Positions 1,104 to 44,495 of a DNA stretch of 64,000 bases are shown here, one piece after another. The stretch's first letter is position 1; every line of letters begins with the position of its first letter. The notes beneath the pieces are model-generated. The model made no database searches and was not told where the DNA came from. It saw only the letters and a program-made list of their open reading frames with translations. A program made the position numbers and the translations under genes. This DNA is from Mobula birostris (taxonomy: Eukaryota): positions 7,006,001 through 7,070,000 of the forward strand of contig NC_092390.1 in assembly GCF_030028105.1 (NCBI RefSeq), written 5' to 3'.

Positions 1104-1325
1104 GGTAACACACACCAAATGCTGGAAGAACTAACTCAGCCGGTCAAGCATCATCTATAGAGAGAAGAAACAGTCGATGTTTGGGACCAAGACCCTTCTT
1201 CAGGGCTCAGACTGAAACACTGACTGCATATTCCTCTCCATCGATGCTGCCTGACCTGCTGAGCTCTCTACCATCTTGTGTCAGTTACTCTGGATTTCCA
1301 GAGTCTGCAGAATATCTTGTGTTTA
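1104..1325. mobile_element. Inverted pair of Penelope-like terminal repeats (pLTR fragments)
   Basis: Left arm (aaatgctggaagaact...cagtcgatgttt...gacccttcttcag) is the approximate reverse complement of the right arm (gaaacactgactg...gatgctgcctgacctgctgag); the same repeat lies 3' of GIY-YIG ORF remnants elsewhere in the window. Confidence 0.8.
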
Positions 1326-1605
1326 CATAAATCTCTAGCCCATGTCCCTAAACCTTTTTATGCGATGCAGTCTTACCATTAACCAAGGGATCTGACAATT
1401 CCAGCCTGGAAACCCTTGCCCTAAACAAAGGTCATCTGAGTCCACTTTAAGCCCAACCTACAAATTGGTCACAATTTGTACACTTGGTTCAGAAGTGAAG
1501 TGCAGTGTAAGTGGTGAATTATCCCAAAGGCTGCAAGTGCCCAGTCAGTAGATGACAGAAAGTGAAAGGGTGAGCCAGAGAGACAAGAAATAACAACAAA
1601 TCATG

Positions 1606-2045
1606 AACACAAGGGATTCTGCAGATGCTGCTAATCCAGGGTAACACACACAAAATGCTGGAGGAACTCAGCAGGCCAGGCAGCATCTACGGAGAGGAAT
1701 TAAATAACCAATGTTTCGGACCAGATCCTTCATGGAGAGGAAGGGAGACAAATCCCGAATAAGGAGGTTGGGGAAAGGGGAAGGAGTACAAGCCGACAGG
1801 TGATAAGTCAGACCAGGTGAGGGGGGAAGTTGGGTGGGGAGGGGGAAGAGGATGGAGTGAGAAGCTGTGAGGTGATAGGAGGAAAAGGTAAGGGGATGAA
1901 GAAACAGGAATCTGATAGAAGAGAGTGGACCACGGAAGGAGGGGAAGGAGGTGATGGGCATGTGAAGAGGAGAGGTAAAAGGGAAGCCAGAAAGGAAAAT
2001 GAAAAAGGACAGAAGGTGCTAGAGGTAAAAAATTACCAGAAATTG
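1606..2045 (-). mobile_element. Penelope-like element 3' terminal fragment
   Basis: Matches 12899-13330 (ctgcagatgctg...cacacaaaatgctggaggaactcagcaggccaggcagcatc plus purine-rich tract). Confidence 0.8.
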
Positions 2046-2267
2046 TCAGGTGCTCATGCTGTCAGTTTGGAGGAACCTGAAGGAAAGGAACAGTCCCTCC
2101 CGAATGCGGAAAAGGGCTGTGTGTTGTCAGTCTCTCCCCAGATCATTCACCCTTCTACGGGTCTGAAATGGAAAATCAACACCAAGACATTGAATTGGAA
2201 GAAGCAGAAGTAAATCAACATTTTATTTGAAAGGGAAGGGTTGAAAAATTGAGTCAGTTATTGTATC

Positions 2268-2425
2268 ACACACAAAATGATGGAGGAACTCAGCAGGTCA
2301 GGCAGCATCTATGGAGGAGAATAAACAGCTGGGTTTACCCTCTTCATTAGGAGGGGTATCAGCTCAAAGCGTCAACTAGTTATTCCCCTCCAGGCCCTGC
2401 TGAGTGCCTGCAGCATTTTGCATGA
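2268..2425. mobile_element. Short inverted pair of Penelope-like terminal repeats
   Basis: cacacaaaatgatggaggaactcagcagg ... ccctgctgagtgcctgcagcattttg in inverted orientation. Confidence 0.7.
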
Positions 2426-2753
2426 GTCTCAGAATTTGGAACATTCCAGCTTCAGGGGCAAGGAGATGAGGGCTGATGTCAGTGTTTCTCAGCTGGACTG
2501 CATGAGTTACTCTCTGACACAAGTGCACATTTGTGGCGTGTTCTCATCATGGAACTGATGGGCTTTTTAATCTGTTAATATTATTTTATGTGCTGTATGT
2601 GATATACGTTCGTGTTTCGTGACTTGTTCCCAGAGGGACGTTATTTCATTTAGCTGTGTACATGTGTACAGTTGAATGACAATACATTTAAGCTTGGACT
2701 TGATTACCCTGCCCTCTCCCACCTTCTTATTCTGGCTCCCACCCGTTCCTTTC

Positions 2754-2791
2754 CAGTCCTGATGAAGGGTCTCAGCCCAAAACATTGACTG
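2754..2791 (+). ncRNA. Degenerate minimal hammerhead ribozyme motif in Penelope repeat (repeat ~2705-2873)
   Basis: cagtc-CTGATGA-agggtctcagccc-AAAAcatt-gactg; stem I cagtc/gactg intact, G12 changed to A. Confidence 0.75.
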
Positions 2792-3633
2792 TTTATAGAT
2801 GCTGCCTGCGTTCCTCCAGTATTTCGTGTGTGTCGCTCTCGGTCTCCAGCACCTACAGAATCCCTTGTGTTTAAGTCCTACATCTTTTGTGGTTGAGTTA
2901 GAGGTGCATGAGAAGGAGATGGTTGCTGAAGATGGTAAGACAGAACAGGGAAAGGAACCAGGACAGGAATGGTCCCTCTGCAATGCTGAAAGGGAAGTGG
3001 TGGTGCTGCTTTGAATAAAGGTTACAGGAATGAAGGGGCCAAATGGCCTGTAATAGAGATAACGATGAAACGATAAAGATTAACGTTATTTGTCACATCC
3101 ACATCGAAACACACAGTGAAATGCGTCATTTGCATCAATGACCAACACAACCCGAGGATGCGTTGGGGCAACCCAGAAATGTTGCCATGCTTCTGGTGCC
3201 AATATAACAAGCTGTTGGATTACACTGTATAATTGTTACTTTCACTGTAGTCTGACCTTTCTCATGTCTGCTTGTATTCCACACAATTGTTCGCATGTCC
3301 CCTAGTGGTTACAGTTCTTGATATTATTCTGGAAGCTTTTTGGGGAGATACAGTCTATCTGACTGGTTAACTCTTATCTACAAATTTGAATGGAATGGCT
3401 GTTATCAATGGTATAAGAAGAGCAGAGCATGTTGGCTTGTTATCTTTTCTTCTTTAATTGTTCTCTCCCCTTCATAGCATTCTCTCTATTCTTGCTACTC
3501 TCCTTTTCAAATTCCTCGTCCTCTTTGTGCTTAATAAAATTATTGTGAGCAATGAGTTATATGCCTCATTCTTGACTATGGAAAGAACCTCAAACAAAAA
3601 CATCAGATTCCAACAATACCACAGCTACACGAA

Positions 3634-4123
3634 AACCCAATTTATACTTCTGCGTTAAATGTACGCCGTAGGTACGGTGTAGCCGCGTACCCTACACTGT
3701 ATTCTATGCCGAACCCTACACCGTAGCCTAATGCGCCCAAAATGTAACTACGCATCGCGGCGACACAGACCGCAACAACTGTGATTGGTTCGCTTGGTAG
3801 CATCGCATTTCCTCCTACACATTTCCAGTTGCTGTTTCTTCTCTGCCATTTCAGAATTGAGAGAGAAGAAACTCTTGTTCAACATTTATTAGCTCTAACT
3901 CCAACATGATGCGCTCAGTTCCAATCGCCATTGTTTGTAGTACGGGAAGAAACTCAACACAGTGGCATAGAAACCCCACCGCCAACTAGCGTTTTGGCGG
4001 TGAATTGCAGAGCGACACAGACACACTAACACACAAGTATAAATGCTCACAACGGCGTAGGTCACTTGCGTAGGCTACGGCGTAAGCTACAGCGTAGCCC
4101 ATACGCACAAGTATAAATCAGCC
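3634..4123. mobile_element. Non-autonomous DNA transposon (MITE), probably PIF/Harbinger
   Basis: Terminal inverted repeats atttatacttctgcgt / acgcacaagtataaat (15/16 match), subterminal cgtag/ctacg repeats, CpG-rich, ttaa on the right flank. Superfamily from recalled TIR type. Confidence 0.7.
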
Positions 4124-6499
4124 TTAACCCTAATCCATACGTCTTTAGAATATGTGGGAAACCGGGAGCACCCAGAGGAAATTCATCGATTTAAGAGCCG
4201 AACTGAATTGGAAAGCTTTGGTTCTGTCCGTATTGAGGTGACGGGACCCGAGGTTATGGGTGAGGAACGACCTGAGTTTTGGATGATTTAAGCACCGAGC
4301 CAAATTGAATGGATCAGGATGTCGGGGTTGGAGGTGAGAGATGGGCCAGTTTGGCTTGCTGCTCTGCGGGGTTTTCTCGTCTCTGAGCTGGACTGAGATC
4401 GTGGCCTGCAACTCGTGAATGTCTGAATCGGCTGCAGTGATGCTTAGCTTTGTGAATTTCAGTTCTGAATGAAATTTGCTTGCTTTTATTGTTTGCACGA
4501 TTCATTCTTTTTTTCTCTCTCTCTGCACACCAGGTGTTTGGATGGTCTTTTGTTTTTAATGGATTCTATTGGGGTTCTTGGCTACCTGTAAGAAGACAAA
4601 TCTCAAGGTTGTATAATGCATACATACTTTGAAATAAAATGTATTTTGTACTTTGTAGTTTGAAACCCACATGGTCCAGGGAGAACATACAAACTCCTTA
4701 CGGACAGCAGCAGGAACCAAACCCTGGTGCCATGAAGCGTGGTCACTGTAATGTCACCTTTACGTACTGTATGACCACATATCAGGAAACTGCTGGGATA
4801 GTGTACATCTCTCAGCCAACCAGACAAGCTGCAAGGAGATAGCGATAGAGTGACGGAAGATCTGCATTCTGTTGCCTGCTGCCTACACTCATTAATCTAC
4901 TCATAAAAACTAAGGGCTCTTCACCTCATCTTCTTGATATTTATTGCTTATTTATGTTTTTTTTCTTCTCTTTCTTTTTGTATTTGTACAGTTTGATGGG
5001 TTTATTTTTTGCACACTGATTGTTGTCCTTTACTGATTCTATTGTGTTTCTTGTATTTTCTGTGATTGCCCACAAGAAAAATGAATCTCAGGGTTGTATA
5101 TGGTGACAGATGTACTCTGATAATAAATTTACTTTAAACTTTGAATTATTCATCCCTACTACGAGATGCTCATGAAAATGTGCTGTAAACAGGCACAACA
5201 TACGGAGGTCAAGACTGGAGCTTCAGGCTCAGCTTGTAGACCAGAAAGATGAAATATCTGTTATAACTGCGCATTGCCAGAATGAGGGAGAGTGGGTGTT
5301 CAGACCCTGTTATGGAGCCTCCAATTGTTACTGCTGTTGCAAGAAGTACTTTCAATCCCCTGTTGTCTTTTGTTAGCAAAAGCTTTGATGTACAGAACAG
5401 CATAGAAACTGGCCCTCCTTACCAAGACTCCCATCTAAGCTGGTCCTATTTGTCTGCATCTAGCTCGTCACCTTCTAAACCGGGGGTTCCCAACCTTTAT
5501 TACGCCATGGTTGTTTTTTAAACGGTTTAAGCCCCATCATCCCTACTGGGGCCTAGACAGCAGCCTGTCAGAGGCCTCTACCTCTGCCCTGGGCCAGTTT
5601 TTCAGGCTGTCTCCAGGTGTGGCACCTTTTCTTGGTTAGAGAGGAGGCCTTTAGAGCTTCAGCTGGGTTTCTGGAGCACTGGGTTTTCTTATTTGCTTTG
5701 CACCAGGCCTTGTGCTCTTCCACCTCCTCTCTGCAGGCCACCTACCTCGTCATTACTGGTAACGGGCCCCAACTCTGTCGAGTCATTGGTGAATCTGACA
5801 GTGTGGTTACTCAGTTATTACTTGGTTCCCTGTATACATCTGCCCTATCTATGCCCACCACTACCCTATATACAGTACTCTGAAAGATCAGCCCTCATTC
5901 TCTTATGCTCCAATGAAAATGCTCAACCTCTCTCCAAAACTCAGTCCCTTGAGCCCCGGGAATCTCCTGAGTATATCATTATCCATTACACTGCCTGACT
6001 TACTGAGTTCCCCTTGTACACATCGATTGTTGAGAGTCTCGTGTACCCTTGCAGAATCTCAGAGACAGATTATCTACAAGAGTAACATTTCTGTGCTCCT
6101 CGGAAACAATCACACTTCAAGGATATAAAAGCTGGCATGCAACGCTTGCATTTCGCTTCCTTGAAAAGAATTAGGATTCAGGATTGTTTAATGTCATTTC
6201 TAGTACGCAAGTGTAAAGGAGACAAAATAATTGTACCTCTGCATCTGATGCAGCACAGAACAAAACACAACAAGATAAAGTACATAATAATAATAAAAAC
6301 ACAATACAAATACATATGATATCTTGTATACATAGATTGATTGTATGTCCATAAAGTGATTCTGAGCACGAGTGATGCTTGGCGTTAACAAGTCAGGGGA
6401 AGACACAAGGATAGAATTTTGTCGGTGATGTGAGGGTGAATTACATGGGTAAAGGGACAGTAGTAATGTGGCAGCTTCCCACATGACTAAAAGTAGCCT

Positions 6500-7188
6500 T
6501 TCAAAGTTTAAAGTACACTTATTACCAAAGTATGTATACACGACCTTGAGAGACGCATCTACAACCTTGAAATTCATCTTCTTACAGACAGCTACAAAGC
6601 AACCCAATAGAACCCATTTAAAAAAACTGTCATTCACCCAATGTGTGGGAAAAAAACAAATCGTACAAACAATAAAAAGAAAACACGGAACACTCAGAAC
6701 TAAAGTTCACAGAGGTGAGTCCACAGCCACAAAGCCAGCTTATCGCTGGTGCCGGCCCGTTAGTTGCCTCGGTTCAGCGCACAGACGAGTAAACCTCGCC
6801 AAGCAGCGAGCTGAACACCGGCTCGTCCCTTGCCTCCGGCCCCAACCTTTTCAATCTGACCAAGCGCATAAATGGGCCAAACACTGGCTTGTACCTCACT
6901 CCCAGCCCCGGGCCCTGCTGTTTTAATTTGGCTCCAATTCCGCTCCATTAGTGGCCGAACATCAGCCCATTCCTCACCCTCGGGCCCAGGCCCTGGCCCC
7001 ACTGCCTCGATTCAACACATACCGGCCACACCGTAATCCCACTGCACCTTTGAGACTCCAGTTCACACTGCAACAATGTTAGGTTCAAAACCACGACTCC
7101 AAAAGCAAATTTGCAGGCTATTAAATGGCTAGTTAGTAGATTTCTTTGCTGCCAGTAAGGTATCATTGTGTCTCACCAATGTCATCTT
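6500..7188 (-). mobile_element. Non-autonomous retroelement with Rex1/Babar-type 3' tail
   Basis: Tail aataagtgtactttaaactttga on the minus strand, shared with many copies; 5' end aagatgac resembles the AAGATGGCG start of 22914-23595. Confidence 0.55.
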
Positions 7189-7579
7189 ACACTGTAATTG
7201 AATTGCATGGAAACAGGCTGTTCGGCCCAACTTGTGCCTGCTATCCACATTGCCTGCCACAGCTATCCCTCATTTGCCTGTATTTGGTCCATACCCCTCT
7301 AAACCATTTCTATCCATGTACAAGTCCACATGTCTTTTAAGCACTGTAATTGTACATGCCTCTACCACTGCCTCTGGCACCCGCCACCCTCTGAATGGAA
7401 AAAGTTGCCTCTCACCTAGAATCGACCCCTCCAAAACGTCTCTTGTTCCTTAATTCACACATCACCAACAATTCCCCACTGGAGAAAATGAGACACAAAG
7501 TTTCATATGAAAATACATGCATTTGGTGTTTATATTATCGCCTTCGTAACATCAGATGACACAACCAGACACTGTCCCT

Positions 7580-7920: not shown

Positions 7921-8084
7921 AACCGTTGCTATTAAAACATAGGAAATACAGTCATTCTGCAAGCCTGCACAAACAAAAAAAAAAGTACAATAATTAAATC
8001 AATTCTTTCTTTGGTGCAACAATCAGCTGGAAGAAGTCAGCAGGAGCATTTTTTCATTATTATCTGTCATACAAGTATTTCCCA

Positions 8085-8240: not shown

Positions 8241-8735
8241 AAAAACACAAGAAACTCCAAAGATGCCAGAAACCTTGAGCAACACACACACACACACACA
8301 AAGCATGAACACCAATTTCTCTAACTTCAGTTAATTTCACCTCCCCTCCCCTTTTTCTCTTGTTCCTTTTCTCATTCTGGCTCCCTTCTCACCACTTCTC
8401 CTCACCTGCCTATATCACCTCCCTCTGGTGCTCCTCTTCCTTCTCTTTCTCCCATGGTCTATTGTTCTCTCCTATCAAATTCCTTCTTCTTCACCTCTTT
8501 AACTTTGCTGCCTATCACCTGCCAGCTTCTCATTTTCATTTGACCTCCCCCACATCCACACACCCTCTCCCTCACCTGCCAGCTTGTATTCCTCCACCTC
8601 ACCCCCCACATATTCTGGCTTCTGCCCCCTCTTTTCCAGTCCTAATGAATGGCCTTGACTTGAGACATTGTCTGTTTATTCCTCTCCCTAGACGCTGCCT
8701 GGCTTGCTGAATTCCTCCAGCACTTTGATTGTGTA
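8241..8735 (+). mobile_element. Penelope-like terminal fragment with short inverted 5' piece
   Basis: Pyrimidine-rich tract, hammerhead relic at 8637-8674 and agacgctgcctggcttgctgaattcctccagc; inverted terminal piece at 8241-8300. Confidence 0.75.
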
Positions 8736-9388
8736 TCTGCGGAAGCATGATGCTCCCTCTGTACCACTCCCAAAGATCAAACCTACGTCCAGGTCAGATG
8801 CCTGAATTTAATCCTAGGATAGGATAGAACATGAGACCGTTTGAGAAAGGAGAAAGGAAGAGATACAGGGGAAAAGCCCGACTTCTGCTTTTGAAAAGCA
8901 AAGTTTGAAGATGCTGGAAATAGGATGCAAATACTTAGCATTCACCAACCTTCTTGATATAACAGCTTCTTCCCTCAGGCTGAGAGATGAATAATACCCT
9001 GCCACCTCCAGGTTTTGTCCCTAGGTCAGTGAGATGTTTACTGTACTGTTTACCTGTGCTGGGCACTACATGCATTTTGGAATTATATTTTGTTAACAGT
9101 TACATTATATTTTGGTTTATGTGCAGTGTTGTGGGTGCACTGTTATTCAGGAAAAGGTTGTTGTGTTTGGTTGTATATATGTACAGTCAGATGACAATAA
9201 ACTTGAACGATCCTGTTTACACTGTGTTTCTCTCTCCACAGACGCTGCCTGGCCCACTGAATGTTTCCAGTAGCTTCTAGTTTTATTCCATTTCCCCTGA
9301 AACTTGGCCCAAACCCAAATGGACAAGGGCCAGAAGTCCACTGCAGTCTTGGAAAAACTGACACGAGGTCTCAGAAAATAAAACTTAC

Positions 9389-11432: not shown

Positions 11433-11840
11433 TTTAATTTAAAAATTCACTAACTTACCAAAACATCTTGATTTAATGGCTTCCACGTTGAGTAAAAAAA
11501 AAACCCAAATCTAATTTAAAAAAGGAATCAAATATGTTCTGCAGTTTTCCTTCTACTTTACTCTCCGCATATTTCCAAACTCATTAAGAAAGCAAGGCTG
11601 TCCAGACAGCAACAAGCCTGAGGCCTACACATTTGGGCAGGTGACCAAGTGCAGAGACACAGACACATCTGAACTTCCCTGGAAACACCGACATCTGACA
11701 ATGAATGTCCTGGGCCCAGCACACAGGAAGACACACCAGCATTTTTTTACTTTCTTAGGAGATGAAGGAGGTTCACCTCGTCACCAAACACTAACAAGCA
11801 TCGACAGATGTACTGTTGAAAGTTCCCTGACTGGTAGCAT

Positions 11841-12718
11841 AAACACGAGAAAATCTGCGGATGATGGAAATCAAAGCAACACACACACACAAGATGCAGG
11901 AGGAACTCAGCAGGCCAGACAGCACCCAGGAAAAGAGTAAACTCAACGATTTGGGCCGAGACCCTTCATCAGGCCTGGAAAGGAAGCAGGAAGAAGCCAG
12001 AAGGGGAAAAGTGGGGGAAGGGAAGTACAACATGGCAGGTGATAGGTGAGACCAGGTGAGGGGGAGGATGGAGGGGCTATGAAGTGAGAAGCTGAAAAAC
12101 TCTAAGTGCAAGTGGTTAAGGGCTGAAGAAGAAGAATCTGATAGGAGAGGAGAGTGGATCAATGGAGAAAGGGAAGGAGGAGGGCACCAGAGGGAGGTGA
12201 CAGGCAGATGAGAAGGTTCCTCCTTCTTCAGCCTTTTACCTCTTCCACTTTATCACATCCTAGCTTGTTACTTTATCACCCCTCCCCCTCACCTGGTCTC
12301 ACCTATCCCTTGCCAGCTTGCAAACCTCCCCTCCCCTATACACCTGACTTCCCTCTCACCTATCACCTTCCAGCTTGTAAACCTCCCCCTTCTTATTTCC
12401 TCGTGTTTGCCCTTCTTATTCTGACCTCTTCCCCTTCCTTTCCGGTTATGATGAAGGGTCCTGGCTTGGAACGTTGAATGTTTATTTGTCTCCATAGATG
12501 TTGCCTGACCTTGCAGNNNNNNNNNNNNNNNNNNNNNNNNNNNNNNNNNNNNNNNNNNNNNNNNNNNNNNNNNNNNNNNNNNNNNNNNNNNNNNNNNNNN
12601 NNNNNNNNNNNNNNNNNNNNNNNNNNNNNNNNNNNNNNNNNNNNNNNNNNNNNNNNNNNNNNNNNNNNNNNNNNNNNNNNNNNNNNNNNNNNNNNNATCT
12701 GCAGAGTCTCTTGTGTTT
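11841..12718. mobile_element. Large inverted pair of Penelope-like terminal repeats
   Basis: 11841-~12200 minus orientation, ~12215-12718 plus orientation; outer ends aaacacgagaaaatctgcggat / atctgcagagtctcttgtgttt; hammerhead relics at 11940-11977 (-) and 12443-12480 (+). Confidence 0.8.
12517..12696. other. Assembly gap (180 N)
   Basis: Run of n. Confidence 1.
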
Positions 12719-12987
12719 ATGAGGCTTCACCCTTTCCCAAGAGTCAGTGCATTGTGAGTGGACATGATGGATAAAGAACGTTTTTTAAGTTTTCCATATC
12801 TTAATAATTTTGGGAACCTTTAGGGAAGAAATAGAAGGAAGCTATGGAGGAAAGCTCTCCAGCAGAGGTGATAAGGTGAACATGATTTACATGGACTGAG
12901 AGAATCTGCAGACGCTGGAAATCTGAGTAACACACACAAAATGCTGGAGGAACTCAGCAGGCCAGGCAGCATCTGTGGAAAAGAGTA

Positions 12988-13025
12988 GAGTCGATGTTTC
13001 AGGCTGAGACCCTTCATCAGGACTG
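12988..13025 (-). ncRNA. Best-preserved minimal type I hammerhead ribozyme motif
   Basis: Minus strand cagtc-CTGATGA-agggtctcagcct-GAAA-ca-TC-gactc: core CUGAUGA and GAAA intact, stem I AGUC/GACU, stem II GGG/CCU, NUH site AUC. Confidence 0.75.
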
Positions 13026-13414
13026 GAAAAAAAATATGGGATCAGGACAAAAAGGTGGTGGGAGGGGAGGAAGTAGTACAAGGTGGTAGGTAATAGGGTG
13101 AAACCTGGAGAGTAAAGAGCTGGGAAGTTGATTGGTGAAAGAGATAAAGGGCTGGAGGAGGTGGAATCGGATCGGAGAGCATGGAAGACCATGGAAGAAA
13201 GGGAAGGGGAGGAGCACCAGAGGGAGGTGATGGGCAGGTGAAGAGATAAGGTGAGAGAGGGAAAGGGGATTGGGGAATGATGAAAGCCGGGGGTGGGGGG
13301 GGGGGGGTGATTACCAGAGGTTCAAGAAGTTGAAGTTCATGCCAACAGGTTGGAAGCTACTCAGACAGATTTACAAGGTGTTGCTCCTTCAACCTGAGTG
13401 TGGCCTCGTCGCGG

Positions 13415-14266
13415 TGTGACAAGAATACACATAGATTACGATGTAGCTGTCCTGTGCTGGCACCAGTGGGATCAGCAGTTGGTCTGCCACCTGTCTTCAG
13501 GAGAGAGAGAGAGATAAGGAAAACAATGGAGCAGCATTTGGAGATGTTAATGAAGGAAGGAGAGCTGTCGGGAGCGGCTCCCCCTTTGAACCCTGAACTG
13601 TTTGAAGTGATGGACAGGCGATACCCCAGCAGGGGGATAAAAAGGGACAGGTTCGCTAAGGCAGGACACACACACGACACCTGAGGTAACAAGACCCTGG
13701 AAGCCGTGCGTCTCTCACAAGTCGGTGGGAAGTACCAGGCCATAGACGCACAGGGTGGAAAGGCACGATCGGCGGGAACCTGGTGTGTGTCCACCCTTGC
13801 CTGGGTGCCAGGTTCACCGCAGGGAAACGATCGTATCTGGAAACGGAGGGGTCACGGTCGGTGACCTCAGATGACATCACAAAGGACTCGCCCGAAAGCT
13901 GACTGCGAAGGTCTGTGCGGAAGCCTTGAATATTCATTCGTTTTGCTCTCTCTCTCCTTCCCCCCACTGTCCATCGCCACGGCAGCAATTACTGTGAACT
14001 GAACTGAACTAAATTGGACTGAACTTTGCGTCACTTTGAAACTGGTCATTTACCCCTAGACAACGATAGAGCTTGATTGATCCTGTTATCTTAATTCTGT
14101 GTACATGTGTGTTTATCATTGCTGAACTGTTGCATTTATTATCCTTTTGATTAGAGTACTGTGTTGCTTGTTTCTTTAATAAAACTTTCTTAGTTCTAGT
14201 AATCCAGACTCCAACTGAGTGATCCATTTCTGCTGGTTTGGCAACCCAGTTACGGGGTACGTAACA
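13415..14266 (+). mobile_element. Solo LTR (852 bp), Gypsy- or ERV-type
   Basis: TGTGAC...GTAACA termini, perfect 4-bp TSD GCGG (13411-13414 and 14267-14270), TATA-like GATAAAA at ~13636, AATAAA at 14178; the host Penelope sequence rejoins seamlessly. Confidence 0.9.
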
Positions 14267-17600: not shown

Positions 17601-18944
17601 TGGAGGCAGATACACTAGTGAAGTTTAAGAGACTACTAGACAGGTATATGGAGGAATTTAAGGTGGGGGCCTATATGGGAGGCAGGGTTTGAGGGTCGGC
17701 ACAACATTGTGGGCTGAAGGGCCTGTACTGTGCTGTACTATTCTATGTTCTATGTTCTATGACATGTCAGAATGGGAATGGGAAGTGGAATTGAAATGAG
17801 TGGCCACCAGGAGACCCCACTTCTTCTGGTGCACAGCGAAGTGGTCTCCCAATCTACGTCAGATCTCACCGATATACAGCAGGCCACACCGGGAGCACCG
17901 GACACAGTATATGACCCCAACAGACTCACAGGTGAAGTGTCGCCTCACCTGGAAGGACTGTTTGGGGCTCTGAATGGTGGTGAGGGAGGAAGTGTAGGGG
18001 CAGGTGTGGCACTTGTTCTGCTTGCAAGGATAGGTGCCAAGAGGGGGATCAGTGGGGACGGTTGAATGGACAAGGGAATCACATAGGGAGCGATCCCTGC
18101 AGAAACTAGGGGGATGGGGAGGGAAAGATGTGCTTGGTGGTGGGATCCCATTGGAGATGGAAGAAGTTACAGAGGATTAAATGCTGAACACAGAGACTAG
18201 TGGGGTGGTAGGTGAGAACAAGAGGAACTCTATCCCTGGTGGGGTGGTGGGAGGATGGGGTGAGGACAGACGTGTGCTACATGGAAGAGACGTGGGTGAG
18301 GGCAGTATTGGTGGTGGAGGACGGAAAGCCCCCTTCTTTGAAGGAGGAGGACATCTCAATGGTTCTGGAATGAAAAGCCTCATCCCAAAAGCAGATGCAT
18401 TTTACAAGTGACAGGGTGGGGAAAGGTATACTCCAGGTAGCTGTGAGAGTCAGTGGGTTTACTAAAGGTATCAGTAGATAAGCTGTCTCCAGAGATAGAG
18501 CCAGAGAGATCGAGACAGGGAAGGGAAGCGTTAAGGAATGACCAGGTAAATTTGAGGGCCAGCAGGTGACTGGTAGTATCATGGCCTGGTACAGCAGTTT
18601 GACTGCACAGGAACACAAGAAGCTGCAGAGAACAATGGACTCAGTCTAATACATCCCCCCCCCCCCGCCCCCCACCATCGGAAGTATCTACAGGAGGTGC
18701 TGCCTCAAGATGACAACATCCATCATCAACGATCCCCACCATCCAGGCCTTGACATCTTCTCACTGCCATAGGGCAGGAGGTACAGAAGCCCGAAGCCCC
18801 ACACCACCAGGTTCAGAAACAGCTACTTCCCTTCAACCATTCAGTTCTTAAACCAACCCTAATCACTGCAGTTTACCAACACTCTGACCATCAAGATAGA
18901 TTTTTAAAAATTTAATTATGTGTATTTGTGTGGAATTTATTTTA

Positions 18945-24299: not shown

Positions 24300-25030
24300 T
24301 TCCCCTGAGAGTGATCTCACAGGTGGACAGGGTGGTGAAGAAGGCACGCAAGATGCTGGCCTTCATCAGTCAGGGCGCTGAGTAAATGAATTGTGATACT
24401 GTGCTGTGCTGTCCAAGGCGTAAGTGAGCCTGAACTTGGAGTATTATATACAGTTTTGGTCTCCCTATTATAGGACAGACGTCATTATGCTGGAACAAGT
24501 GCAGAAAAGCTTTACAAGAAGGTTGCCAGGATTCACATAAAAAATGCTGCCTGGCCTGCTGCGTTCACCAGCATTTTGTATGTGTGTTGCTTGAATTTCT
24601 AACATCTGCAGATTTCCTCATGTTTGCCAGGATTCAACGTCCTCAGATATAGGGAGAGGTTGGGCTTTATTCTTTGGATGTAGGAGGCTGGGGTGGGGGG
24701 ATGACCTTGTAGAAGTGTAGAAATCAGGAGGGGTATTGATAGGCTGAATACACAGTCTTTCTCCCAGGTAAAGGGTATCATAAACCAGAAGGCAAAGGAT
24801 TAAGGAGAGAGGGGAAAGTTTTAACAGGAACCCGAGGGCATAAGGGTGGTGAGTATATGGGACAAGCTGCCAGAGGAAGTGGCTGCGGCTGGTTCAATAG
24901 CAATGTTTAAAAGGAATTTGGACAGGACATGGATAAGAAAGCTTCAGAGGAATATGGGCAAATGGGACTAGCTAAGATGGGGCAGTTAGTGGGCTTCGAT
25001 CAGTTGAGCCAAAGGGCATGTTTCCTCTGT
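24300..25030 (+). mobile_element. Old CR1 3' fragment containing a mini Penelope insertion
   Basis: caggtggacagggtggtgaagaaggc...ttggagtattatatacagttttgg aligns by eye to the CR1 ORF2 end. Confidence 0.75.
24536..24623 (+). mobile_element. 88-bp Penelope terminal insertion with 13-bp TSD
   Basis: TTGCCAGGATTCA duplicated at 24523-24535 and 24624-24636; insert is a short inverted piece plus the pLTR terminus. Confidence 0.85.
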
Positions 25031-25609: not shown

Positions 25610-26319
25610 GTCTGGTAACCTTTCTTTCCAACAGGTCTAACTTATACTTCTCTCTCAGTGTTTAAAAAAACAGCTGGAATTAATCTTCAAAATTTACGAA
25701 ATGAGGCATTAACAGCTCTGGTTTCTCCTTCACCAACCTGGTTCCAGAGTCCATCATCAAGACGAGTGTGTTTCTCATTCACACATTACCTCTGCCTGGT
25801 ACAGATTATTAGTGACCAGAGTCCTTGTGCAAGGGGATAACTCTCAACTCTTCTTATCTCTTAACACCCCAAACTCCTGTCCTTGCCCCTTGCTTGCAGT
25901 AACATCTATAGTCCAGGCTTCAACTGGTGGATGAATCGTATTGGATCCATTATGCTCCATGTCCTCCTCCCACCTTCTTATTTTGGTTTCTGTTTCCTTC
26001 CTTTCCAGACCCGATGAAGAGACTCAGCCCAAAACACCAACTGTTTATTCCCTTCTATAGATGCTGCCTGACCTGCTGAGTTCCTCCACCATTCTGGGTG
26101 TGGTGCAGAAAGTTCCACAGGTTGGTCACCATGCTCTGGATGAAGATATTTCTCCTAATTGTGCTTCTAAACAGCAGACCCCCTACCCTGAGGCTGCGAC
26201 CACTGATTCTGGAATCACTGGCCATTCAGATCAGTCTGTATGTAATCTCTTTAGTTCTGCTGAGCTTCAATAGATTTCTAGGAGGTTCCCTGTTTACGCA
26301 GTGAACGGTAGTGCACTTG

Positions 26320-27844: not shown

Positions 27845-29469
27845 GGAAGGTGGGGGAGGAGAACAGAGAAAGAAAATGAAGTGGATTAAATCCAGATGAG
27901 GGGGGGGGGAAGAGAGAGAGCCAGATGAAGTAAACAGTGAGACCAGATTCAGCCTGCGTGAACAGCTTACATTGTACCAGCTTTCATTTTAGTGCAGAGT
28001 TTGCAGGAGTGTTTGCCAACATCCACCTCAAACCCCTCCCATTAGATGTGCATCTGCTTCTTATCATGTATAGTTGTTTGCTACAGTAGTAATGAAATTG
28101 GCCCCGTTTAATTTCTGTGTTTAGTGTCCTTTGTTGTTCCTGATTTCATTAACCTTATCCTATGAGCCACTGGATGAAGCTCCATCAGTTACATTGCAGT
28201 CCATATATTGTCAAAGAAAGAGCTGTCTCTTTGAAAAAATTCAAGAGAAAGGTTTGCTTTGTGTGTCACTTCCCCATTACCTGTTTGCCACTGAATATGT
28301 GCAAGTCACATGCACAGGAATGGTGACATTTGACATTTTAGCGTTCCACTTCCAGGAAGGATTCTGTTCACACAGGAAGGCACCCGTACCCGTTACCCTG
28401 ACTGGAGATGTCTAGGTGGCAGAATGTGTGTTGAGTCGGGATGAAGTGATTGGGGTTGGGCAGGGACGAGTCACGGAGTCATGCAGCATAGAGAAAGGCC
28501 CTTTGGTCTCCAAGTGTTGGATGTCAGCCAAGGTTCCCCTTTACGATGAAGCGTCTCAGCCCAAAATGTCAACTGTTCATTCCTTTCCGTAGATGCTGCA
28601 AACCTCCAATGTTCTGTGTCCCTTACTCTCTGCTACCTTGTCCCATTAAGCCTACTCTTTGGTCCATATCCCTCTAAACCTTGCCCATCCATGTACCAAT
28701 GAAAGTGCCTTTAAATTGTTAACGTGCCTGCTTCAAGCACTTCCTCTGGCAACTCCTTCTATGTTCAAACCACCTTCTGGGTGAAAAAGTTGCCCCTCAG
28801 GTTCCTATTAAGTTTCTCCCCTCTCATGTTAAACCTCTATCAGGAAGGAGGTACAGGAACCTTAGGTCCCACAGTGCCAGGTTCAGGAACAGTTCAGCCT
28901 TCACCAGTCAGGCTCCTGAACGAGCATGGGTAACTTCACTTACCTCAACTCTGAACTGTTTCCATAACCTATGGACTCATCTTCACTACAACTCATGCTC
29001 ATAGTGTTATTTGTTTGCTTTTTAAAAAATATTTCACAATGGTTATTTGTCAGTTTTTGTTTGTGTGTAGTTTTTCATTAATTCTGTTGTATTTCAATGC
29101 TCTACTGTGAATGTCTTGAAAGAAAATGAATCTTAAGGAGGTATATAATGATATACATGTGCTTTGCTAATAAATTTACTTTGAACTACCATGTCCTCTA
29201 CTTCTTAATTCCCCCAAATCTGAGAAACAGACTGTGCATAAAACTAAAAGAATCAAAACAAAACAGTGTGGAAATGGCCCTCCAGAGCTTTATGGTCCTT
29301 ATAAAGAGCAGGTTCTGAAGCAGCTTGCATCTCCATTTCTAGGATATGGAGGACAGCAAACAGGATGTGCAGACAGGGTGAGTCCTCCCTGCAGGGACTT
29401 CAACACCCTGCCACCACACCCCTCTCTTACTCACTTGGCTTGACTCAGGAGTGTATTGCCTTTAGCTTG

Positions 29470-29690: not shown

Positions 29691-29889
29691 ATGCTTACTC
29701 CAGTAGCAAAATACAGCAGATGCCGGCAATCTGAAATAAAATTGGAAAATGCTGAAAACGCTCAGCAGATCAGGCAATACCTCTACGGGAAGGAGAGTTA
29801 ATGTTTCAGAGCAATGTCCTACATCCTCTGCCATCAACTGACAGAGATGTCAAACTTCTCTCATTCCCCACTCTCCTCCAAGCACTTTA

Positions 29890-34680: not shown

Positions 34681-35864
34681 TTGAATGTCATGCGTAGATA
34701 GATATTCCTTCTCTTATTAGAGTGGTCATTGGCTGGCATCCTTCCATGGCATGGATGTTACTTGTCGTTGTCCAGTCCATATCTGAATGTTGTCCAGGTC
34801 TTATTAAGTGCAGACATGGGTTCATTTGCCGAGGAGTTGCAAACTGAATTGACCATAGGGTAATCATCAGGAAACATTCCCACTTCTGACCAAACAATAG
34901 ATGGAACAGCTGATCACCACCAGCCCCAGGACCCTGCCCCGAGGAATTCCTGCAGCAATACATTGGGGCTAGGATGATTGGCTCAGTCAGAACAAGCCCC
35001 GTCCACGAATGGCCTGCTTTGAGGCAAGACTTATTGGAAGAAATGCCAATATCTTGCCAGCTCACTGCCCCATCACTCACAAGGATTGCCAGGATGCTGA
35101 GGTATTTATCTAATCAACCGCATGCAATCCATCTCCATCAAATGAATTCACCGAGAGATTTAGATGTGAAATCTGCCCCGGATTAAGTTAATTTATCACC
35201 AGTGAAACATAAACCAAAGCAATGAAACGAGGAAGGAAGTTGCTATAATTGAACTTGAACTTATCTCGTGATGAATTACAGAAAGAAAAACAAAATTACA
35301 CATTTTCCACTTTTCTATAAGGAATGCCAGTAAAATCTCTCTCACTGTCTTCAGTTTCCAAACTGCAAGGATGGAGATCAGATCTGAGCAGAGAGAGCTG
35401 TACAAAACATCGAGGGGTTAAGCTTCGTGCCTGGTGTCACACTTGTGTATAGATGGACGCGGGCCAGGAAAGCACAGGATCACCAGTTGTATTGCTTGTG
35501 TTGGCTCCAGTGTCAGGCACTTGAAATGTTCCAAAGCAAACATGCTGCTCGATGGGACCAGCGTAGGCAGGTCTGGAGCAGAGGGGAGAAAGATACAGGG
35601 CTCACAGGGCTCTCTCTCTCTCTCCCCCTGTAAAACTCTCACTCCCTCTCATTCTCTCTCTCTGTCTTTCTTGCAGGATTCAGGTTGACTGGGCAAGATA
35701 ACCAGAAATTTTTAAAATGCTGGATATGCTTAACATTCTAATGGAACCCCACACAAAGTGTGCTGGAGGAACTCAGCAGGTCAGGCACCATCTTTGGAGA
35801 GGAATTGATCCTGACACTGTCATGCATCAGAGGCTTAGAAGCAGAGACTGCAGCAGGAATCCAC

Positions 35865-36148: not shown

Positions 36149-37679
36149 AATAGTAATCCAATGGATTTATTCCTCCAAAATATTAATGCAGAACTCATCC
36201 AGGACCAGACATCCTTTAATAAGTTGGAACACAGAACAGATCAGAAGAGTGGGGTTTGGCGACCTCACCGACTGGACATGGATAACGTTAGGATTGGATT
36301 GTGCAGAAAAGACACAGAAGGTAATGTTACCAAAGGTAGTGTCTAACTGTGAAACTGAAGGGGGCCAAACAGGAGGTGTTCTGGGGAGACTCCGGAGGCA
36401 ACAGTGAAGGAAAACCATTGTGGGGGCTCTCTAATGTACGAGGGCAAACGATCTCACCCCTAATGGAAGTACAAGTGAGGAATAGAAGCTCAGACACAGC
36501 AAAGGGGGAGGAGGGACACTGTATCCTGGTCACATCACATGCACCATCAACAGACCATTATTAAATCAGCACATTACAAAGTGCCAACAATATCTTTGGA
36601 GCAGCTGACAAGTAACTGCTGAGCAATACTGTATATGGATTGTTTGTGAAAAGGGTGTAAAGGAACTGGCTTGTAATGAATATACCCATACTGGCCTTTG
36701 CCAATGGCCAGCATTAAGAACTTAAACTTGGTAACAATCTCCCCCTTCGCTGCAAACACAAGCATAGTGCAACTAGTGATCCAACATTCCACACGTTTTA
36801 AACGGGCAAACAACTTCCATGAAAACAGATGAAGAATCTAAGAAGGAGAAAGGGTTGGCAGAGTGGAGTGGAACAGAATGCGAGCAGGAGAGGAAGTGGA
36901 GGGAATAATTCCTTGTGTTTAAATTACAAAAAAAAAATTAAGTTTCTGAGGACCACAGAGATTAGTTGAGGCAGCCATGATCATGTTGAATGGCAGGACA
37001 GGCTTGAGGGCTGAGCAGTCTCCTGTGTTTTTTTTCTGGTATTTTTGATGAATGATCTAACAATCCACAGAAATTGTTTTCAAATTTTCTCATGGTCTCG
37101 GTCTCCAGTTCAACTGGCCAAGTCCCATGTGGGTGTATTCCCTCTTAGCCTGTCCCTTCACATCCAGATTCACAAACCATTTCTAGGAATGAAACAAGAC
37201 CATTCAAAACTCCATGTAATCCCAGTTTAACCATGCTAGCACTTTGAAAGCATCAGTCATTAGTCCCACTTCCCTGCTCACATCTGACAGCCCAACAAAT
37301 ATCGTGAATCAAACATTCTCCACACTCAAATACTTTTACAGAACAAAATCAGATTTAATCATAACAAGGTCAACTTCTGCTACGACAACAATGGGGGAAA
37401 TTCTGCTTATCTTTGCATTGATCAGTTAATAAACAAAAAAAACTGTCTGCAATTACAGGTCCTAAAACCACTTTTCATTGTAATGTTAGTAGTTATAAAG
37501 AGAAACAGGCATCACTGGTTAAAAATTATGTTGAGGCAACTTCTTACTTTAATGCTGCCTTATCCCATCAACCTGCACCCCGACCATAGCCCATATCCCT
37601 CTCACCCATGAGATCAAATGTTGAAATCAGAAATAAGTGTGAAATTGTGATTCCTACTGTACAAAATACTGAGGTTCTG

Positions 37680-38550
37680 ATTCTGCAGATGCTAGAAATC
37701 CAAAGTAACACACAAAATGCTGGAAGAACTCAGCAGGTCAGGCAGCATCAATGGAAATGAATAAACAGTCGACATTTTGGGCCGAGACCCTTCTTCAGGA
37801 CTGGAAAGGAAGGCAGAAAGTAGGGGAAGGGAGGAGGACAGCGAAAAAGTGATAAGTGAGAAAAGGAATCTGATAGGAGAGAAGAATGGATCGTGAGAGA
37901 AAGGGAAGAAAGAGAAACACCGGGGGAGATGACGGCAGGTGCAGAGAAGAGGGAAGGGGGGTGGAAAAAAATTAATGGAAGGAGAAATCAATGTTCCTGC
38001 TATGAAGTTGGAGGCTACCCAGATGGAATTATAAGGTGTTGCTCCTTCAACCTGAGTGTGGCCTCATCTTGGCACAAAAGGAGACCATGGACTGACATGT
38101 CGGAACAAAAATGGGGATAGGAATTAACAGTTGGCCACCAGGAAGTTCCACTTTTGGCAGATGGAGCAGAGATGCTCGACAAAGCAGTCGCCCAACTTAT
38201 GCCAGGTCTCACCAATGAGGAGGAGGCTGCATTTGCAGCACTCTATACAATTGACAACCCCAATACATTCACAGGTGAAGTGTTGCCTCACCTAGCAAAG
38301 ATGTTCAGGGCCCTGAATGGAGGTGAATGGACCTCTGTCACTTGCAGTGACAAGTGCTGGGGTGGAGATTAATGGGGAGAGGCAAACGTCCAAGGGAGTC
38401 AGACAGAGAGTGGAAAGTGGGGAGTGGGGGCGGCGGCTGGTAAAGGTGGTAGTGTTCCATTGAAGATGGCAGAACTTGTGAAGAATGAAATTTTGGTTGC
38501 GGAGGCTCATGAGGTGGTAGGTGAGGACAAGAGGAACCCTATCCCTGTTA
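37680..38550 (-). mobile_element. Penelope-like element fragment (degenerate GIY-YIG plus pLTR)
   Basis: Minus strand VNCIECCKCSLLLIGET and GLLLCQDEATLRLKEQHLI; hammerhead relic at 37766-37803. Confidence 0.85.
37766..37803 (-). ncRNA. Degenerate minimal hammerhead ribozyme motif
   Basis: cagtc-CTGAAGA-agggtctcggccc-AAAAtgTC-gactg; stems I and II perfect, G12 changed to A. Confidence 0.75.
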
Positions 38551-39189: not shown

Positions 39190-39770
39190 GTCCTATTAAA
39201 GGAAGGATGTGGAGGCTTTGGAGATGCAGTTTACCAGGATGCTGCCTGGATTAGAGTTGGATGTGCTACAAGGACGGTTGCTTCTTTTCTGGAACAAAGG
39301 GGGCTGAGGAGACCTAATTGAAGTTTGTATAATTATGAGAGGCACAGATAGAGAAGACAGCGGGTATCTTTCTCCCAGGGTCGAAATGTCTAATACCAGA
39401 GGACGTGCATTTAAAATGAAGAGGTGCAGTCCAAAGGAAATGTGCAGGGCATCACACAGAAAATGCCAGAGGAACTCAACAGGGCAGGTAGTGTCTATGG
39501 AGATAATAAACAACCAAGATTCTTCAACAGGACTGGAAAGGATGGAGGAAGAAACCAGAATAATTTTGTACACAGTTGTGGATGTCTGGAATACTTTAAC
39601 AGAGGTAGGGTGGAGGGCGATATGATAGAGGTGTTATAAACGCTTTCACTTGGCACACAAATATGCAGGGAATGGAAGGGTATGGAGCGCATGCAGGCAG
39701 AAAGGATCAGTTTAACTAGGTGTCAGCAGTTCAGCACAACACTGTGGAGAGAAGGGCCTGCCCCCAAGCT
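39190..39770 (+). mobile_element. CR1 3' fragment with a Penelope terminal piece (~39450-39560)
   Basis: ggaaggatgtggaggctttggag...tttaccaggatgctgcctgg; ORF 39335 MRGTDREDSGYLSPRVEMSNTRG. Confidence 0.75.
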
Positions 39771-40808: not shown

Positions 40809-41239
40809 TCTCTCTCAGTGCAGACAGCCGACAGCCCACAGCCATGGCTGAAGGACCTTGCTTCACTGTTGTTCTATGGTTTGTGCCAGGCAGAAGCGCT
40901 GACTGCTATGCCAGATGAAGCCTACGTGATTACCCCTTCAGCTCTTGGGCAGGAAAAGTTTTCACAGTGCCATAGCATCGCAGAGAGTCACAACACATAA
41001 ACAGGCCCTTCAGCCCATCAAAGCTGTGCAGACTATCAATCAGCCCTACAGCAACTGCATTGCACTCCTCCTATCAGTCATCTCCCAGTTTCTAACATTC
41101 ACTTACATACTAAGGGCTGTTTACAATGACTAAACAATCTGAGAACACATGAATTTTTATCATATTTTATTAAAGCCTGAATGCTGTGTAATGTCAATCA
41201 CCTCATTCTGGACATCAAGGCCTTATTCTGACCAAGTTG

Positions 41240-41900
41240 ACCTTCTGCTGACATTGACGGGCTATCATAGCAACATCCTTTCCCTCAATGTCGACAAAAG
41301 AGCTGCTCATTGACTTCAGAAAGAGGGACAGAGCACATCCTCCTGTCCACATCACTGAGAGGTTGAGAGCTTCAGGTTCCTCGGTGTGAACATCCCCAGT
41401 ATCATCCTGGTCCAGTATGTTGACGTCGTGGCCAAGAAAGCTCGCCAATGCCTCGACTTCCTCAAGAGGCTAAAGGAATTTGCATGACCCATATCAAGTT
41501 TTAATCAATGCCCCACAGAAAGCATTCTGTCTGGATGTATATGGCTTGGTATGGCAACGGCTCTACCTGTGACTACAAAGAACTGCAGATCATAGACAAC
41601 CAGCCTCCCCTACATAGACATTGTCGACACTTCTCACTGCCTCACTAAAGCAGCCCACATAATCGAAGACCCCAGCCGCCCCAGTTATTCACTCTTCTCT
41701 CCCGCCTCCCAACGTCAGGTGGAAGATAGCACGCACCACCAGGCTCAAGGACAGCTTCTATCTCACTGTTATCAGACTCTTAAATGGATGTTTAGTATGA
41801 TAAGATGGACTCTTGGCCTCGCAATCTACCTCATTATGTTCTTGCACATTATCATTCACCTACCCTGCACTTTTTCAGTACATTTTACAGTTTATTCTCC
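41240..41900 (+). mobile_element. Rex1/Babar-type LINE fragment
   Basis: ctcaatgtcgacaaaagagctgctcattgacttcagaaag and gaaagcattctgtctggatgtat...tggtatggcaac. Confidence 0.7.
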
Positions 41901-42689
41901 ACTGCTACTGTTTTAGGAACAGCTCCTTCCCCTCTAAAGCCAGCCTTCTGAATGGGCCATGAACCCGTGAACACTGTCTCGTTAATCTTGCTTTGCACAA
42001 CATAAGTCCGTGACAATAAACCCGATTCTAAATAAAGAACAAAATCTTTCCAATGTTCTTTGATCTCTCCCTTTCCTGGTTGTTCACCGTAATATTTTGG
42101 AGATAAGTACCTAACTACTGGAGTTTCCAAACTCTCCTGCAGAGATGTCAACTCTTGTATAATGGCTATAAATTACATTGGTAAATACATAGTGGGAGAA
42201 AAGCAGCTTCCCTACAACCCCATTAGGTACAAAGATTCCAATTCAGTAATAACTAACTATATTTATCTAGTGTAAAACCACCCTGCATTTAATGATTTCT
42301 TTATGGTTCCCTGAGTGCAGAAGATTAAGAGTGATATATTTAGGTATGTTATGGTTAAGCTTTTCACAGAGGTTCATGGATAGAAAGTACTTCCAACAAA
42401 ATGGAGGGATGGTGCAGTCAGACTAAGGGTTCATAATCTTTATTTCAGAGCACAGCTGTGGACAGACGTGACCCAGGAAGAGACATTTCTTCACAAATAT
42501 TTGAAGGATAAGAACTTTAGAAGCATGAGAAAGCTATTTGGTCCATCAGGCCTACACTAGAGCAGCTGTCAAACTTGTAGGAGGGACAGCTAAGTTTGAG
42601 ACATTCAGCTTTCCATTACATGGGGGTGAGGAGCAATTCAGAGCAAACACAGACAGGTGGCAACTCAGCTTCAGATCAGCTGAAAGACA

Positions 42690-43115
42690 GGATAGACCAC
42701 ACAGTCCATTTAGCCCATCGAATCTTCTCCTACACTTCTTCACAGCTGATTCCCTCTCAAATCCTTTCTCCTGCCTTCTTCCCAAAACCTTTTTCACCCT
42801 TACTAATTAATCTATCAACCTCTGCTTTAAATACACCCAGTGACCTAGCCTGCACAGGAATCTGCGGCAATAAATTCCACAGATTCACCGAAGTCTGACT
42901 CAGAAAACTCCTCCTCAACGCTGTTCTAAAGGGACATCCTTCTGTTCTGGCACTGTGCCCTCTGGTCCTAGATTCTCCCACTACAGGAAATCTTCTCCAA
43001 GCCTTTCAATGTCCAATAGGTTTCAATGAGATCTCCCATCATTCTTCTAAATTCCAGTGAGTACAGGCTCAGAGGCATCAAACACTCCTCATACATTAAC
43101 CTTTTCATTCCTGGG
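42690..43115 (-). mobile_element. CR1 3' fragment
   Basis: ORFs 42757-42981 and 42968-43168 (GESRTRGHS, LYSLEFRRM.GDLIETY). Confidence 0.85.
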
Positions 43116-43699
43116 ACATCTGTCCTGTCACATTCTGGTTTGTGATGTATATCACTCAGGAACTCCACACAAAATTGGATTTACTAGCTCTGACATACAT
43201 CATGAAATGTGTTATTTTGCAGCAGTACAGTACAAGACAAAAAAAAAACTCAGTCACAATTAAAAAATAAAATAAACGAAAATTTCAAAAGAGAAATGCA
43301 TGAAAAAATTACTAAAAGTTACAAAAGATTTTTTTTTAAATAGTGCAATAAGAGAGCAAAGAGTGTGGGAGTGTTCATGGGTCCATGAATATCTCTGCCT
43401 CGATGTCAACTCAGGCCCGGTTAACTTCATATCTCCTGACAGATATGTGGTTGCTCCTTAACAATAATAACCTGTGAAACATGCCTGCTTGAGAAAGGAC
43501 TGACATTAATAACACCATCATATCTCTCAAAACCAGCCTATGGTAATTTAGATATAATTAATTACCATCGTTAGGTGGCAGCTGCTATATACCACACAAG
43601 CTGATGATGCACGGGCCCCTTCTAAGGCAGCGACAAACACCCACAGGGACACGAGTGCGGACAAGGTCCATCTCCAGATCAATAATCTTAGACTTGTAG

Positions 43700-44495
43700 G
43701 GATTCCCATTTCAACTTGTCAGCCCACGGCCTCCTCTACTGCCTCAAGGATGCGTATTCAGGTTGGAGGAACAACACCTCATATTCTGTCTGAGTAGCCT
43801 CCAACCTAATAGCGTGAATATCAATATCTTAAACTTCTGGTAATTTCTCTCCCTTCGCCCTTTTACTATTCCCCATTCTGGCTCCCCCCCTTACTCCCCT
43901 TTTCCTCACCTGCCCATCAACCCCCCTCTGGTGCCCTTCCTCCTCTTTTTCCTATGCTCCTCTCCAATTGCATTCCTCCTTCTTCCACTGATCACCTCCC
44001 AGTTTCTAACTCTACCCCACCCACCTACCTACCTACTCCCTCAACTTTTTTAGTTTTATTGAGGCACAGAGCGGAAAAGACCCTTCCGTCCCTCAAGCTG
44101 CACCACCCTGCATTCCCCAGTTTAACCCGAGCCTAATTAATTTACAATGATCAATTAACCTACCAACCATTACGTCTCTCGACTGTGGGAGGAAACCTGA
44201 CCACCTGGAGGAAACCCACATGGTCATGGGGAGAAGGCACAAACTCCTTGCAGGCTGTGGCAGAAATTGAACCTGGGTCACCTGTACTATAGAGCGTTGT
44301 GCAAACCACTATGTCTGGCCTTGCCGATAACCCGCCAGCTTGTGCTCATTTCCCTCACGCCACCTTGTTATCCTCTCTCCTTCCCCCACCTTTTTCCAGC
44401 CCCGAAGAAGGGTCTCGGCCTGAAACGTTGACTGGTTATTCCTTTCCATAGATGCTGTCTGGCCTGCTCAGTTCCTCCAGAATTTTGTGTCTTGT
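43700..44495 (+). mobile_element. Penelope-like fragment with nested minus-strand V-SINE (~44050-44315)
   Basis: RLEEQHLIFCLSSLQPNSVNI C-terminus, pyrimidine tract, hammerhead relic at 44397-44434. Confidence 0.85.
44397..44434 (+). ncRNA. Degenerate minimal hammerhead ribozyme motif
   Basis: cagcc-CCGAAGA-agggtctcggcct-GAAACGTT-gactg; keeps GAAA and the ACGT palindrome, U4 changed to C. Confidence 0.7.

Follow-up and report, generated by a model that had tools for sequence, protein, structure and literature searches.

A 64 kb stretch of contig NC_092390.1 from the ray Mobula birostris (NCBI RefSeq assembly GCF_030028105.1, positions 7,006,001 to 7,070,000, forward strand; hereafter the window) was analyzed. 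It holds many broken copies of a Penelope-like element (PLE), most of which carry all or part of a 38-nt motif near their 3' end. These motifs are read as predicted minimal type I hammerhead ribozymes that belong to the terminal repeat of a single PLE family, which is very abundant and whose copies in the window are 5'-truncated, mutated and likely dead (probability about 0.9). The anatomy of the motif, its location 3' of a GIY-YIG open reading frame (ORF), the covariation of stem I in sister families and the decay of the copies are supported directly by the data.

The Penelope-like element and its relics

The motif lies near the 3' end of the repeat, and the element ends about 100 nt 3' of it. 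The longest copies extend in the other direction, via a pyrimidine-rich stretch of 350-400 nt, into a broken ORF. A tblastn search with PLE proteins located four ORF relics (17760-18559, 38027-38546, ~13314-13458 and 43704-43837), the last three of which lie upstream of, and on the same strand as, the motifs at 37766, 12988 and 44397; the original prediction had likewise put the number of copies retaining ORF sequence at three. The relic at 17760..18559 (-) has no motif, and comprises the C-terminal part of the reverse transcriptase (RT), a CX4CxxC linker and the GIY-YIG region, broken by frameshifts and stops. Reading through 17760-18110 gave 10 protein matches, at 56-80% identity over the aligned stretches, 8 of which bear the species label Hypanus sabinus or Mobula hypostoma (both rays), and the matched proteins have a YIDD-type RT stretch, the CX4CxxC linker and a GIY-YIG end. 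In the relic itself C-X4-C-X2-C precedes the GIY-YIG stretch, for which the Pfam match (E 0.04) was below cut-off; full-length relatives of 742-1626 aa matched both RVT_1 and GIY-YIG, again below the curated cut-offs. Among 92 homologues that have a GIY-YIG-like motif, 89 contain the linker. A CX2-5CxxC linker is a mark of Neptune or Nematis PLEs (Craig et al., 2021, PMC8557442), and the element is accordingly classed as putatively Neptune/Nematis-type, the clade being assigned by linker motif and not by tree.

Relics of the PLE end were counted with an nhmmer profile built from 8 copies, at a threshold of E ≤ 0.01. The window contained 23 (12 on the + strand, 11 on the -) and the reversed window none; 18 overlap the motif and 15 span it in full. 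All ten copies listed in the original prediction were present at their coordinate and strand, including the 5'-truncated copy at 28543, where the alignment starts at motif offset 8. The term relics was apt, as the window copies are broken, and the density given, about one per 6 kb, was an undercount: the 18 motif-overlapping relics amount to one per 3.6 kb.

The ORF was detectable by tblastn in just 3 of the 23 relics, and 2 more reach its last codons. This scarcity would suit short copies that are not truncations of an autonomous element but a non-autonomous derivative, SINE-like (short interspersed element) or retrozyme-like, spreading via the PLE machinery. Of three head-to-head inverted pairs (1107-1323, 2262-2454 and 11840-12516), the first two also bear on this alternative, having similar join points, and a 2026 preprint reports non-LTR (long terminal repeat) retrozymes in one chondrichthyan (Li, Clavereau and Pollet, 2026, bioRxiv 10.64898/2026.07.22.740005). 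However, the 5' ends of the relics are staggered, from within the ORF to about 20 nt beyond the motif, as truncation predicts, and none of the 11 array rows reported by Tandem Repeats Finder in the window contains the motif. A non-autonomous origin is thus considered unlikely. In both short inverted pairs one arm breaks off within stem I and the other where stem II starts, and the junctions inside the motif share a CCT/AGG overlap; the pairs represent a small subfamily of palindromic form or else template switching that happened more than once. Head-to-head inverted truncated copies are a described feature of PLEs (PMC8557442).

Motif anatomy and sister families

The reading as a truncated PLE family with a terminal hammerhead was examined on the consensus of the window copies. 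It contains the core CUGANGA and GAAA...UH, and after correction for CpG decay was identical, letter for letter, to the consensus originally aligned by eye. Stem I has 5 bp with type I closure around the core (pair probability >0.9 in the isolated motif). Stem II has the G10.1-C11.1 pair and an unpaired nucleotide after A9; the 3 bp first assigned to it are indeed three G-C pairs, to which the predicted fold adds a U.G pair and a 4-nt loop. The palindrome ACGU, at 15.1-16.1, is present in the consensus and forms no stable helix III. Stem III had been placed in this palindrome, but it has no loop, and a monomer is therefore unable to close it. With ≤3 mismatches allowed, a 25-nt core pattern matched the window 6 times, compared with 0.00 in 100 shuffles. 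The 38-nt motif stands as a reconstructed consensus and not as the actual sequence of individual copies: among the 15 spanning copies only one (12988) keeps the whole core, GUC is kept in two, and the palindrome is intact in two.

The Rfam search proposed earlier as a check returned no hammerhead family match, at the gathering threshold or at E ≤ 10, for the window or for 5 loci whose sister motifs are intact; as those intact motifs were also without a match, the check is uninformative.

Metagenome contigs were searched for sister motifs by a pattern that fixed the core and three pairs of stem II and left all else, stem I included, free. At least 121 loci were obtained, and the counts that follow are among the matches listed. 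Three or more stem I pairs were formed in 56 of 88 distinct motifs, against a mean of 20.8 and a maximum of 32 in 1000 flank shuffles. A hand-picked alignment of 22 rows, 18 from the metagenome and 4 from the window, has two-sided changes at each of the five stem I pairs, and in it the hammerhead structure outscores every slid version, with the qualifications that the shuffle control is inflated by the relatedness of rows and that pairing weakens at the two outer stem I pairs. The fourth stem II pair was formed in 51/88, one large family being without it. A PLE ORF match was found at 24 of the 121 loci, and at 16 loci the end of the endonuclease lies 81-138 nt upstream of the motif on the same strand; at one (L001) a 595-codon frame is 47% identical to a ray protein. 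The ray family itself was at none of the 121 loci, and the window profile matched one of them, by the motif part alone. These loci are AT-rich sister families, distinct from the ray family.

Taken together, the consensus anatomy, the linkage to a PLE ORF on the sense strand and the covarying sister motifs fit the minimal hammerhead consensus of Cervera and de la Pena (2014, PMC4209133), and the minimal type I reading of the original prediction is supported. A covariance model built from 18 metagenome motifs recovered the copies at 37766 and 12988 at E<0.001 and that at 2754 at 0.027, with three more of the ten copies at E 2-8, among chance matches; this test is in part circular, its core pattern having been derived from the finding in the window. 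A further match of this model, at 50577, was rejected as chance, as it falls inside a LINE (long interspersed element) ORF and has no GAAA. No match to two motif patterns was found in viral contigs.

Locus L001 also contains (1060-3609) a near-complete Neptune/Nematis-type PLE with one frameshift; its ORF is followed 3' by an intact minimal hammerhead, and an inverted one lies at its 5' side. At L007, L019, L042 and L050 motif pairs are head-to-head or opposed.

Abundance was assessed from the contigs of four sequencing runs, aligned to copy 37766 at ≥80% likeness; contig numbers and summed depths are not copy numbers. The 118,287 contig records in run X1 and 131,407 in run X3 (which has another organism label) show that the family is very abundant. 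In run X1, N7 was 39% U and 27% C, the rest A (depth-weighted), whereas core bases other than N7 and G12 had no variant row among the rows listed, in a table that is biased towards the reference copy and partly listed (21 further rows). A variable N7 beside core positions that, G12 apart, have no listed variant is what one would expect if the ribozyme had been under selection in its source elements. CpG sites had decay letters at 13-47%, and G12 (53%) and C15.2 (52%) were majority letters in run X1 at positions where the reference copy has the other letter.

Conservation of the motif as a protein-coding or DNA signal, with the hammerhead likeness incidental, was judged very improbable. One consensus frame is open for 16 codons with N7 at a third codon position, and the anole hammerhead overlaps the start of an ORF and is not required for insertion in vitro (PMC11167929). 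Against this, sister families vary the letters of stem I and loop II freely while keeping the pairs, and no other third position was variable among the contig variant rows listed. Frames just 3' of the motif, considered as a possible ORF start, had no credible match to the N-termini of 130 PLE proteins.

Decay of the copies, proposed mechanism and neighboring features

Five CpG-type columns near the motif, four of them inside it, mix TG and CA in the way typical of methylation decay, and the CpG observed/expected ratio of the window (0.33) is consistent with a methylated genome. CpG columns were off consensus in 96/210 cells (46%), the 3' flank in 171/1132 (15.1%) and the non-CpG core in 13/142 (9.2%). 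At the CpG of C11.1/G12, CA (G12 lost) was found 8 times and TG (G12 kept) 6 times (p=0.79); this lack of bias gives no sign of selection for G12. Deletions of 7-14 nt inside the motif affect 5 of the 15 spanning copies (near 1720, 2330, 39520, 56660 and 58760), compared with 3 in the 3' flank, a difference that was not significant (p=0.08, counted by eye). No window copy satisfied the full descriptor of core, stems and ACGU palindrome. The unbiased loss of G12, the motif deletions and the failure of every copy to satisfy that descriptor make it highly improbable that the host has retained some copies as working ribozymes, and solo minimal hammerheads did not cleave in the 2014 study, in which dimers cleaved weakly (PMC4209133). 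In favor of retention are the slightly lower substitution of the core than of the flank (p=0.058) and the thousands of family contigs in runs X6 and X21, which were guessed to be RNA, transcription not being shown thereby.

The individual relics are as follows. Six or seven lie close together at 1100-2900. The first inverted pair consists of 1107..1207 (-), whose motif (1171-1207) has lost G12, and 1202..1323 (+), which begins in stem II, is joined to the left arm at a short AGG overlap and was absent from the original list. The relic at 1604..2063 (-) starts in the last ORF codons and continues across the 3' non-coding part; a 7-nt motif deletion removes C3-G5. In the second pair the left arm, 2262..2352 (-), has an 8-nt motif deletion and the right arm, 2347..2454 (+), a degenerate motif. 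The next motif-bearing relics are 2718..2874 (+), with motif 2754-2791 (G12>A, palindrome ACAU), and 8305..8739 (+), which starts from the last ORF codons and has motif 8637-8674 (G5>A, A14>G). A relic at 9221..9295 (+) begins at motif offset 35, one base past the predicted 5' end of the cleavage product. The third inverted pair is formed by 11840..12215 (-; motif 11940-11977, G12>A, A15.1>U) on the left and 12240..12516 (+; motif 12443-12480, C3>A, A13>G), which runs into the N gap at 12517-12696. At 12899..13458 (-) the C-terminal end of the GIY-YIG ORF is retained with motif 12988-13025, the sole copy with all core bases and stem II, its palindrome being ACAU and stem I having 3/5 pairs. 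Further along are 25969..26117 (+; motif 26006-26043, U4>C, G12>A, U16.1>C), the 5'-truncated 28545..28614 (+; motif from offset 8, G12>A) and 29706..29825 (-), degenerate with a partial motif. The longest continuous relic, 37678..38546 (-), joins the ORF remnant 38027-38546 through the 3' non-coding part to motif 37766-37803, in which both stems are complete, G12 is A and the palindrome is AUGU. At 43704..44537 (+) the ORF end (43704-43837) is separated from motif 44397-44434 (U4>C) by an unrelated insert of ~300 nt at ~44058-44357. Larger motif deletions mark 39436..39563 (-; 13 nt, removing G12-C17), 56603..56770 (-; 12 nt, in the core) and 58640..58874 (+; 14 nt, removing stem II). The part 3' of the motif is all that remains at 5971..6063 (+; weak, E 0.0014), 24546..24621 (+), 35715..35805 (-) and 53926..53977 (-). 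The core change U4>C is common to the copies at 26006, 28543 and 44397, by chance or as a minor subfamily.

In the proposed mechanism, active source elements would be partial tandems, and two motifs on one transcript would pair via their ACGU palindromes, building helix III. Once paired, the motifs would cleave directly after GUC, in a reaction that is probably slow and assisted by the protein of the element itself. With reverse transcription beginning ~100 nt 3' of the motif and in most cases ending early, nearly all insertions would carry the motif and few the ORF. Insertions would then decay neutrally at methylated CpGs; as the catalytic G12 is part of one CpG, and the palindrome and the cleavage site hold two others, copies would lose ribozyme potential quickly, and selection on the motif would have acted solely in the source elements. 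The anole element PAc offers a partial model, as cleavage by its hammerhead required the element's protein, the hammerhead was dispensable for insertion in vitro, and reverse transcription started just 3' of it (PMC11167929). A review likewise describes PLE hammerhead dimers as weak, citing Lunse et al. 2016 (PMC6765202). With U or C at N7, folding models allow pairing between the core bases G5-G8 and the CGUC stretch, and these models would fit a ribozyme that needs help.

Several points weigh against this account. No full-length element, and no tandem with two motifs, was found in the window. The strand-swapped active dimer was predicted at -19.9 kcal/mol versus a cofold minimum of -33.7, and the open-core monomer had P=0.02 with U at N7. 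The lower substitution of the core than of the flank was not significant and leaves room for weak constraint or for spread of flank subfamilies. The bias of the contig variant table and the assignment of the clade by linker motif count in the same direction.

Cleaved templates, if real, should pile up insertion 5' ends exactly at the cleavage site; 1 of the 23 window relics has its 5' end there, and in the contigs no loose end at the site was present among the 24 of 1719 rows listed and depth had no step-down across it.

The stretch of 350-400 nt between ORF stop and motif was also considered as a possible retained spliceosomal intron whose splicing would act as an on-switch for the ribozyme, here in a vertebrate PLE from another clade than Drosophila Penelope. 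The GT donor of this candidate intron would overlap the stop codon of the ORF, and its AG acceptor would lie within the 5' strand of stem I. Splicing would retain the inner 3 stem I pairs and remove a C/U-rich tract able to pair with the catalytic core, and would thereby switch the ribozyme on. G|GTAAT occurs at the ORF stop in 3 of 5 copies checked, the donor-position G is the 91% letter in run X1 contigs, the pyrimidine tract directly before the motif ends in CAG inside stem I, and the intron of Drosophila virilis Penelope ends at the 5' end of helix I (PMC4209133), the same placement as here; on these grounds an intron is plausible. Counting against it, the stretch is C/T-rich anyway, and another site that resembles an acceptor is present ~17 nt 3' of the motif. 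The predicted splice joint was absent among 15 of 545 contig joints listed, a protein search for exonised pieces gave 0 matches among 6 candidates, and an AG just before the core was not seen in the metagenome sister families. In folding, the consensus upstream tract suppressed stem II (P≤0.06), 4 of 6 real upstream flanks allowed P 0.5-0.8, and random flanks had a median of 0.34. The intron is regarded as unlikely. In L032, L037, L070 and relatives a pyrimidine tract ending in AG lies 15-20 nt 3' of the motif, about the distance in the window family, and is a possible splice acceptor.

Other features of the window include further retroelements. A near full-length CR1/L2-type LINE at 14219-17592 (+) has an SGNH/GDSL esterase-like ORF1, an apurinic/apyrimidinic endonuclease and RT, with breaks; a second lies at 54494-56170 (+), a LINE C-terminal fragment with a Pfam ALKBH8_N match at 48607-49182 (-), and there are many 3' fragments besides. 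A CpG-rich island with a GGGA run at 46800-48100 (observed/expected 0.79 vs 0.33 overall), likely a promoter region, contains none of the 23 relics. A tandem array of a 29-nt unit (10.4 copies) occupies 58093-58393, and a dispersed repeat of ~600 nt occurs in inverted orientation, ~80% alike, at 22984-23595 and 32079-32635. N gaps are at 12517-12696, between two facing PLE relics, and 27622-27844. No tRNA was found in the window.

Comparison with known systems

Literature searches, which found the 2014 paper and its follow-ups, did not turn up a PLE hammerhead described from a shark or ray. In Fig. S3 of that paper, as extracted, no cartilaginous fish is among the hosts (PMC4209133), and the words 'Penelope' and 'ribozyme' do not occur in the portion of the manta ray genome preprint drawn on. 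The 2026 preprint includes one chondrichthyan with hammerhead retrozymes, so the group is not wholly unreported, and its lists may already include the ray family (bioRxiv 10.64898/2026.07.22.740005). The ray family adds cartilaginous fishes to the hosts of minimal PLE hammerheads, an addition not found in print in these searches, and its abundance allows a computational test of whether PLE hammerheads cut in vivo.

The non-LTR retrozymes of that preprint have the same PLE-derived type I hammerheads in vertebrates and differ in forming tandem arrays, whereas the window copies occur singly or inverted, in linkage with ORF remnants. In the anole Poseidon element PAc (Frangieh et al., 2024, PMC11167929) the hammerhead likewise lies near the junction of terminal repeat and ORF, with the element end shortly 3' of it. 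PAc differs in belonging to the Poseidon clade, in an ORF that starts in stem II, and in that protein-assisted cleavage was shown, where for the ray family it is a prediction. The endonuclease-containing PLEs of Neptune/Nematis type share the order of RT, CX2-5CxxC linker and C-terminal GIY-YIG, as well as 5' truncation and inverted truncated copies (PMC8557442); in contrast to these, the window has no intact ORF, and its element may be either Neptune or Nematis.

The closest match is to the minimal hammerheads of metazoan PLEs (PMC4209133): both are type I in topology and have CUGANGA, an additional nucleotide following A9 and G10.1-C11.1, followed by GAAA, a palindromic 15.2-16.2 and UH. GAAA-CG-UC without a helix III loop is also shared, many rows of Fig. 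S3 having the same GAAA C G U C end, as are the location in a terminal repeat and the predominance of solo copies from truncated elements. Stem II is short here, at 3-4 bp, compared with 7-8 bp in Schistosoma and fugu. The 18 relics per 64 kb far exceed the density implied by the 4,000-9,000 motifs per genome given there, those motifs being intact and these broken. Genome-wide dispersal of minimal hammerheads from truncated PLEs was the main result of that study; the kind has been known since 2014, and the ray family is a further member of it, ordinary as a kind.

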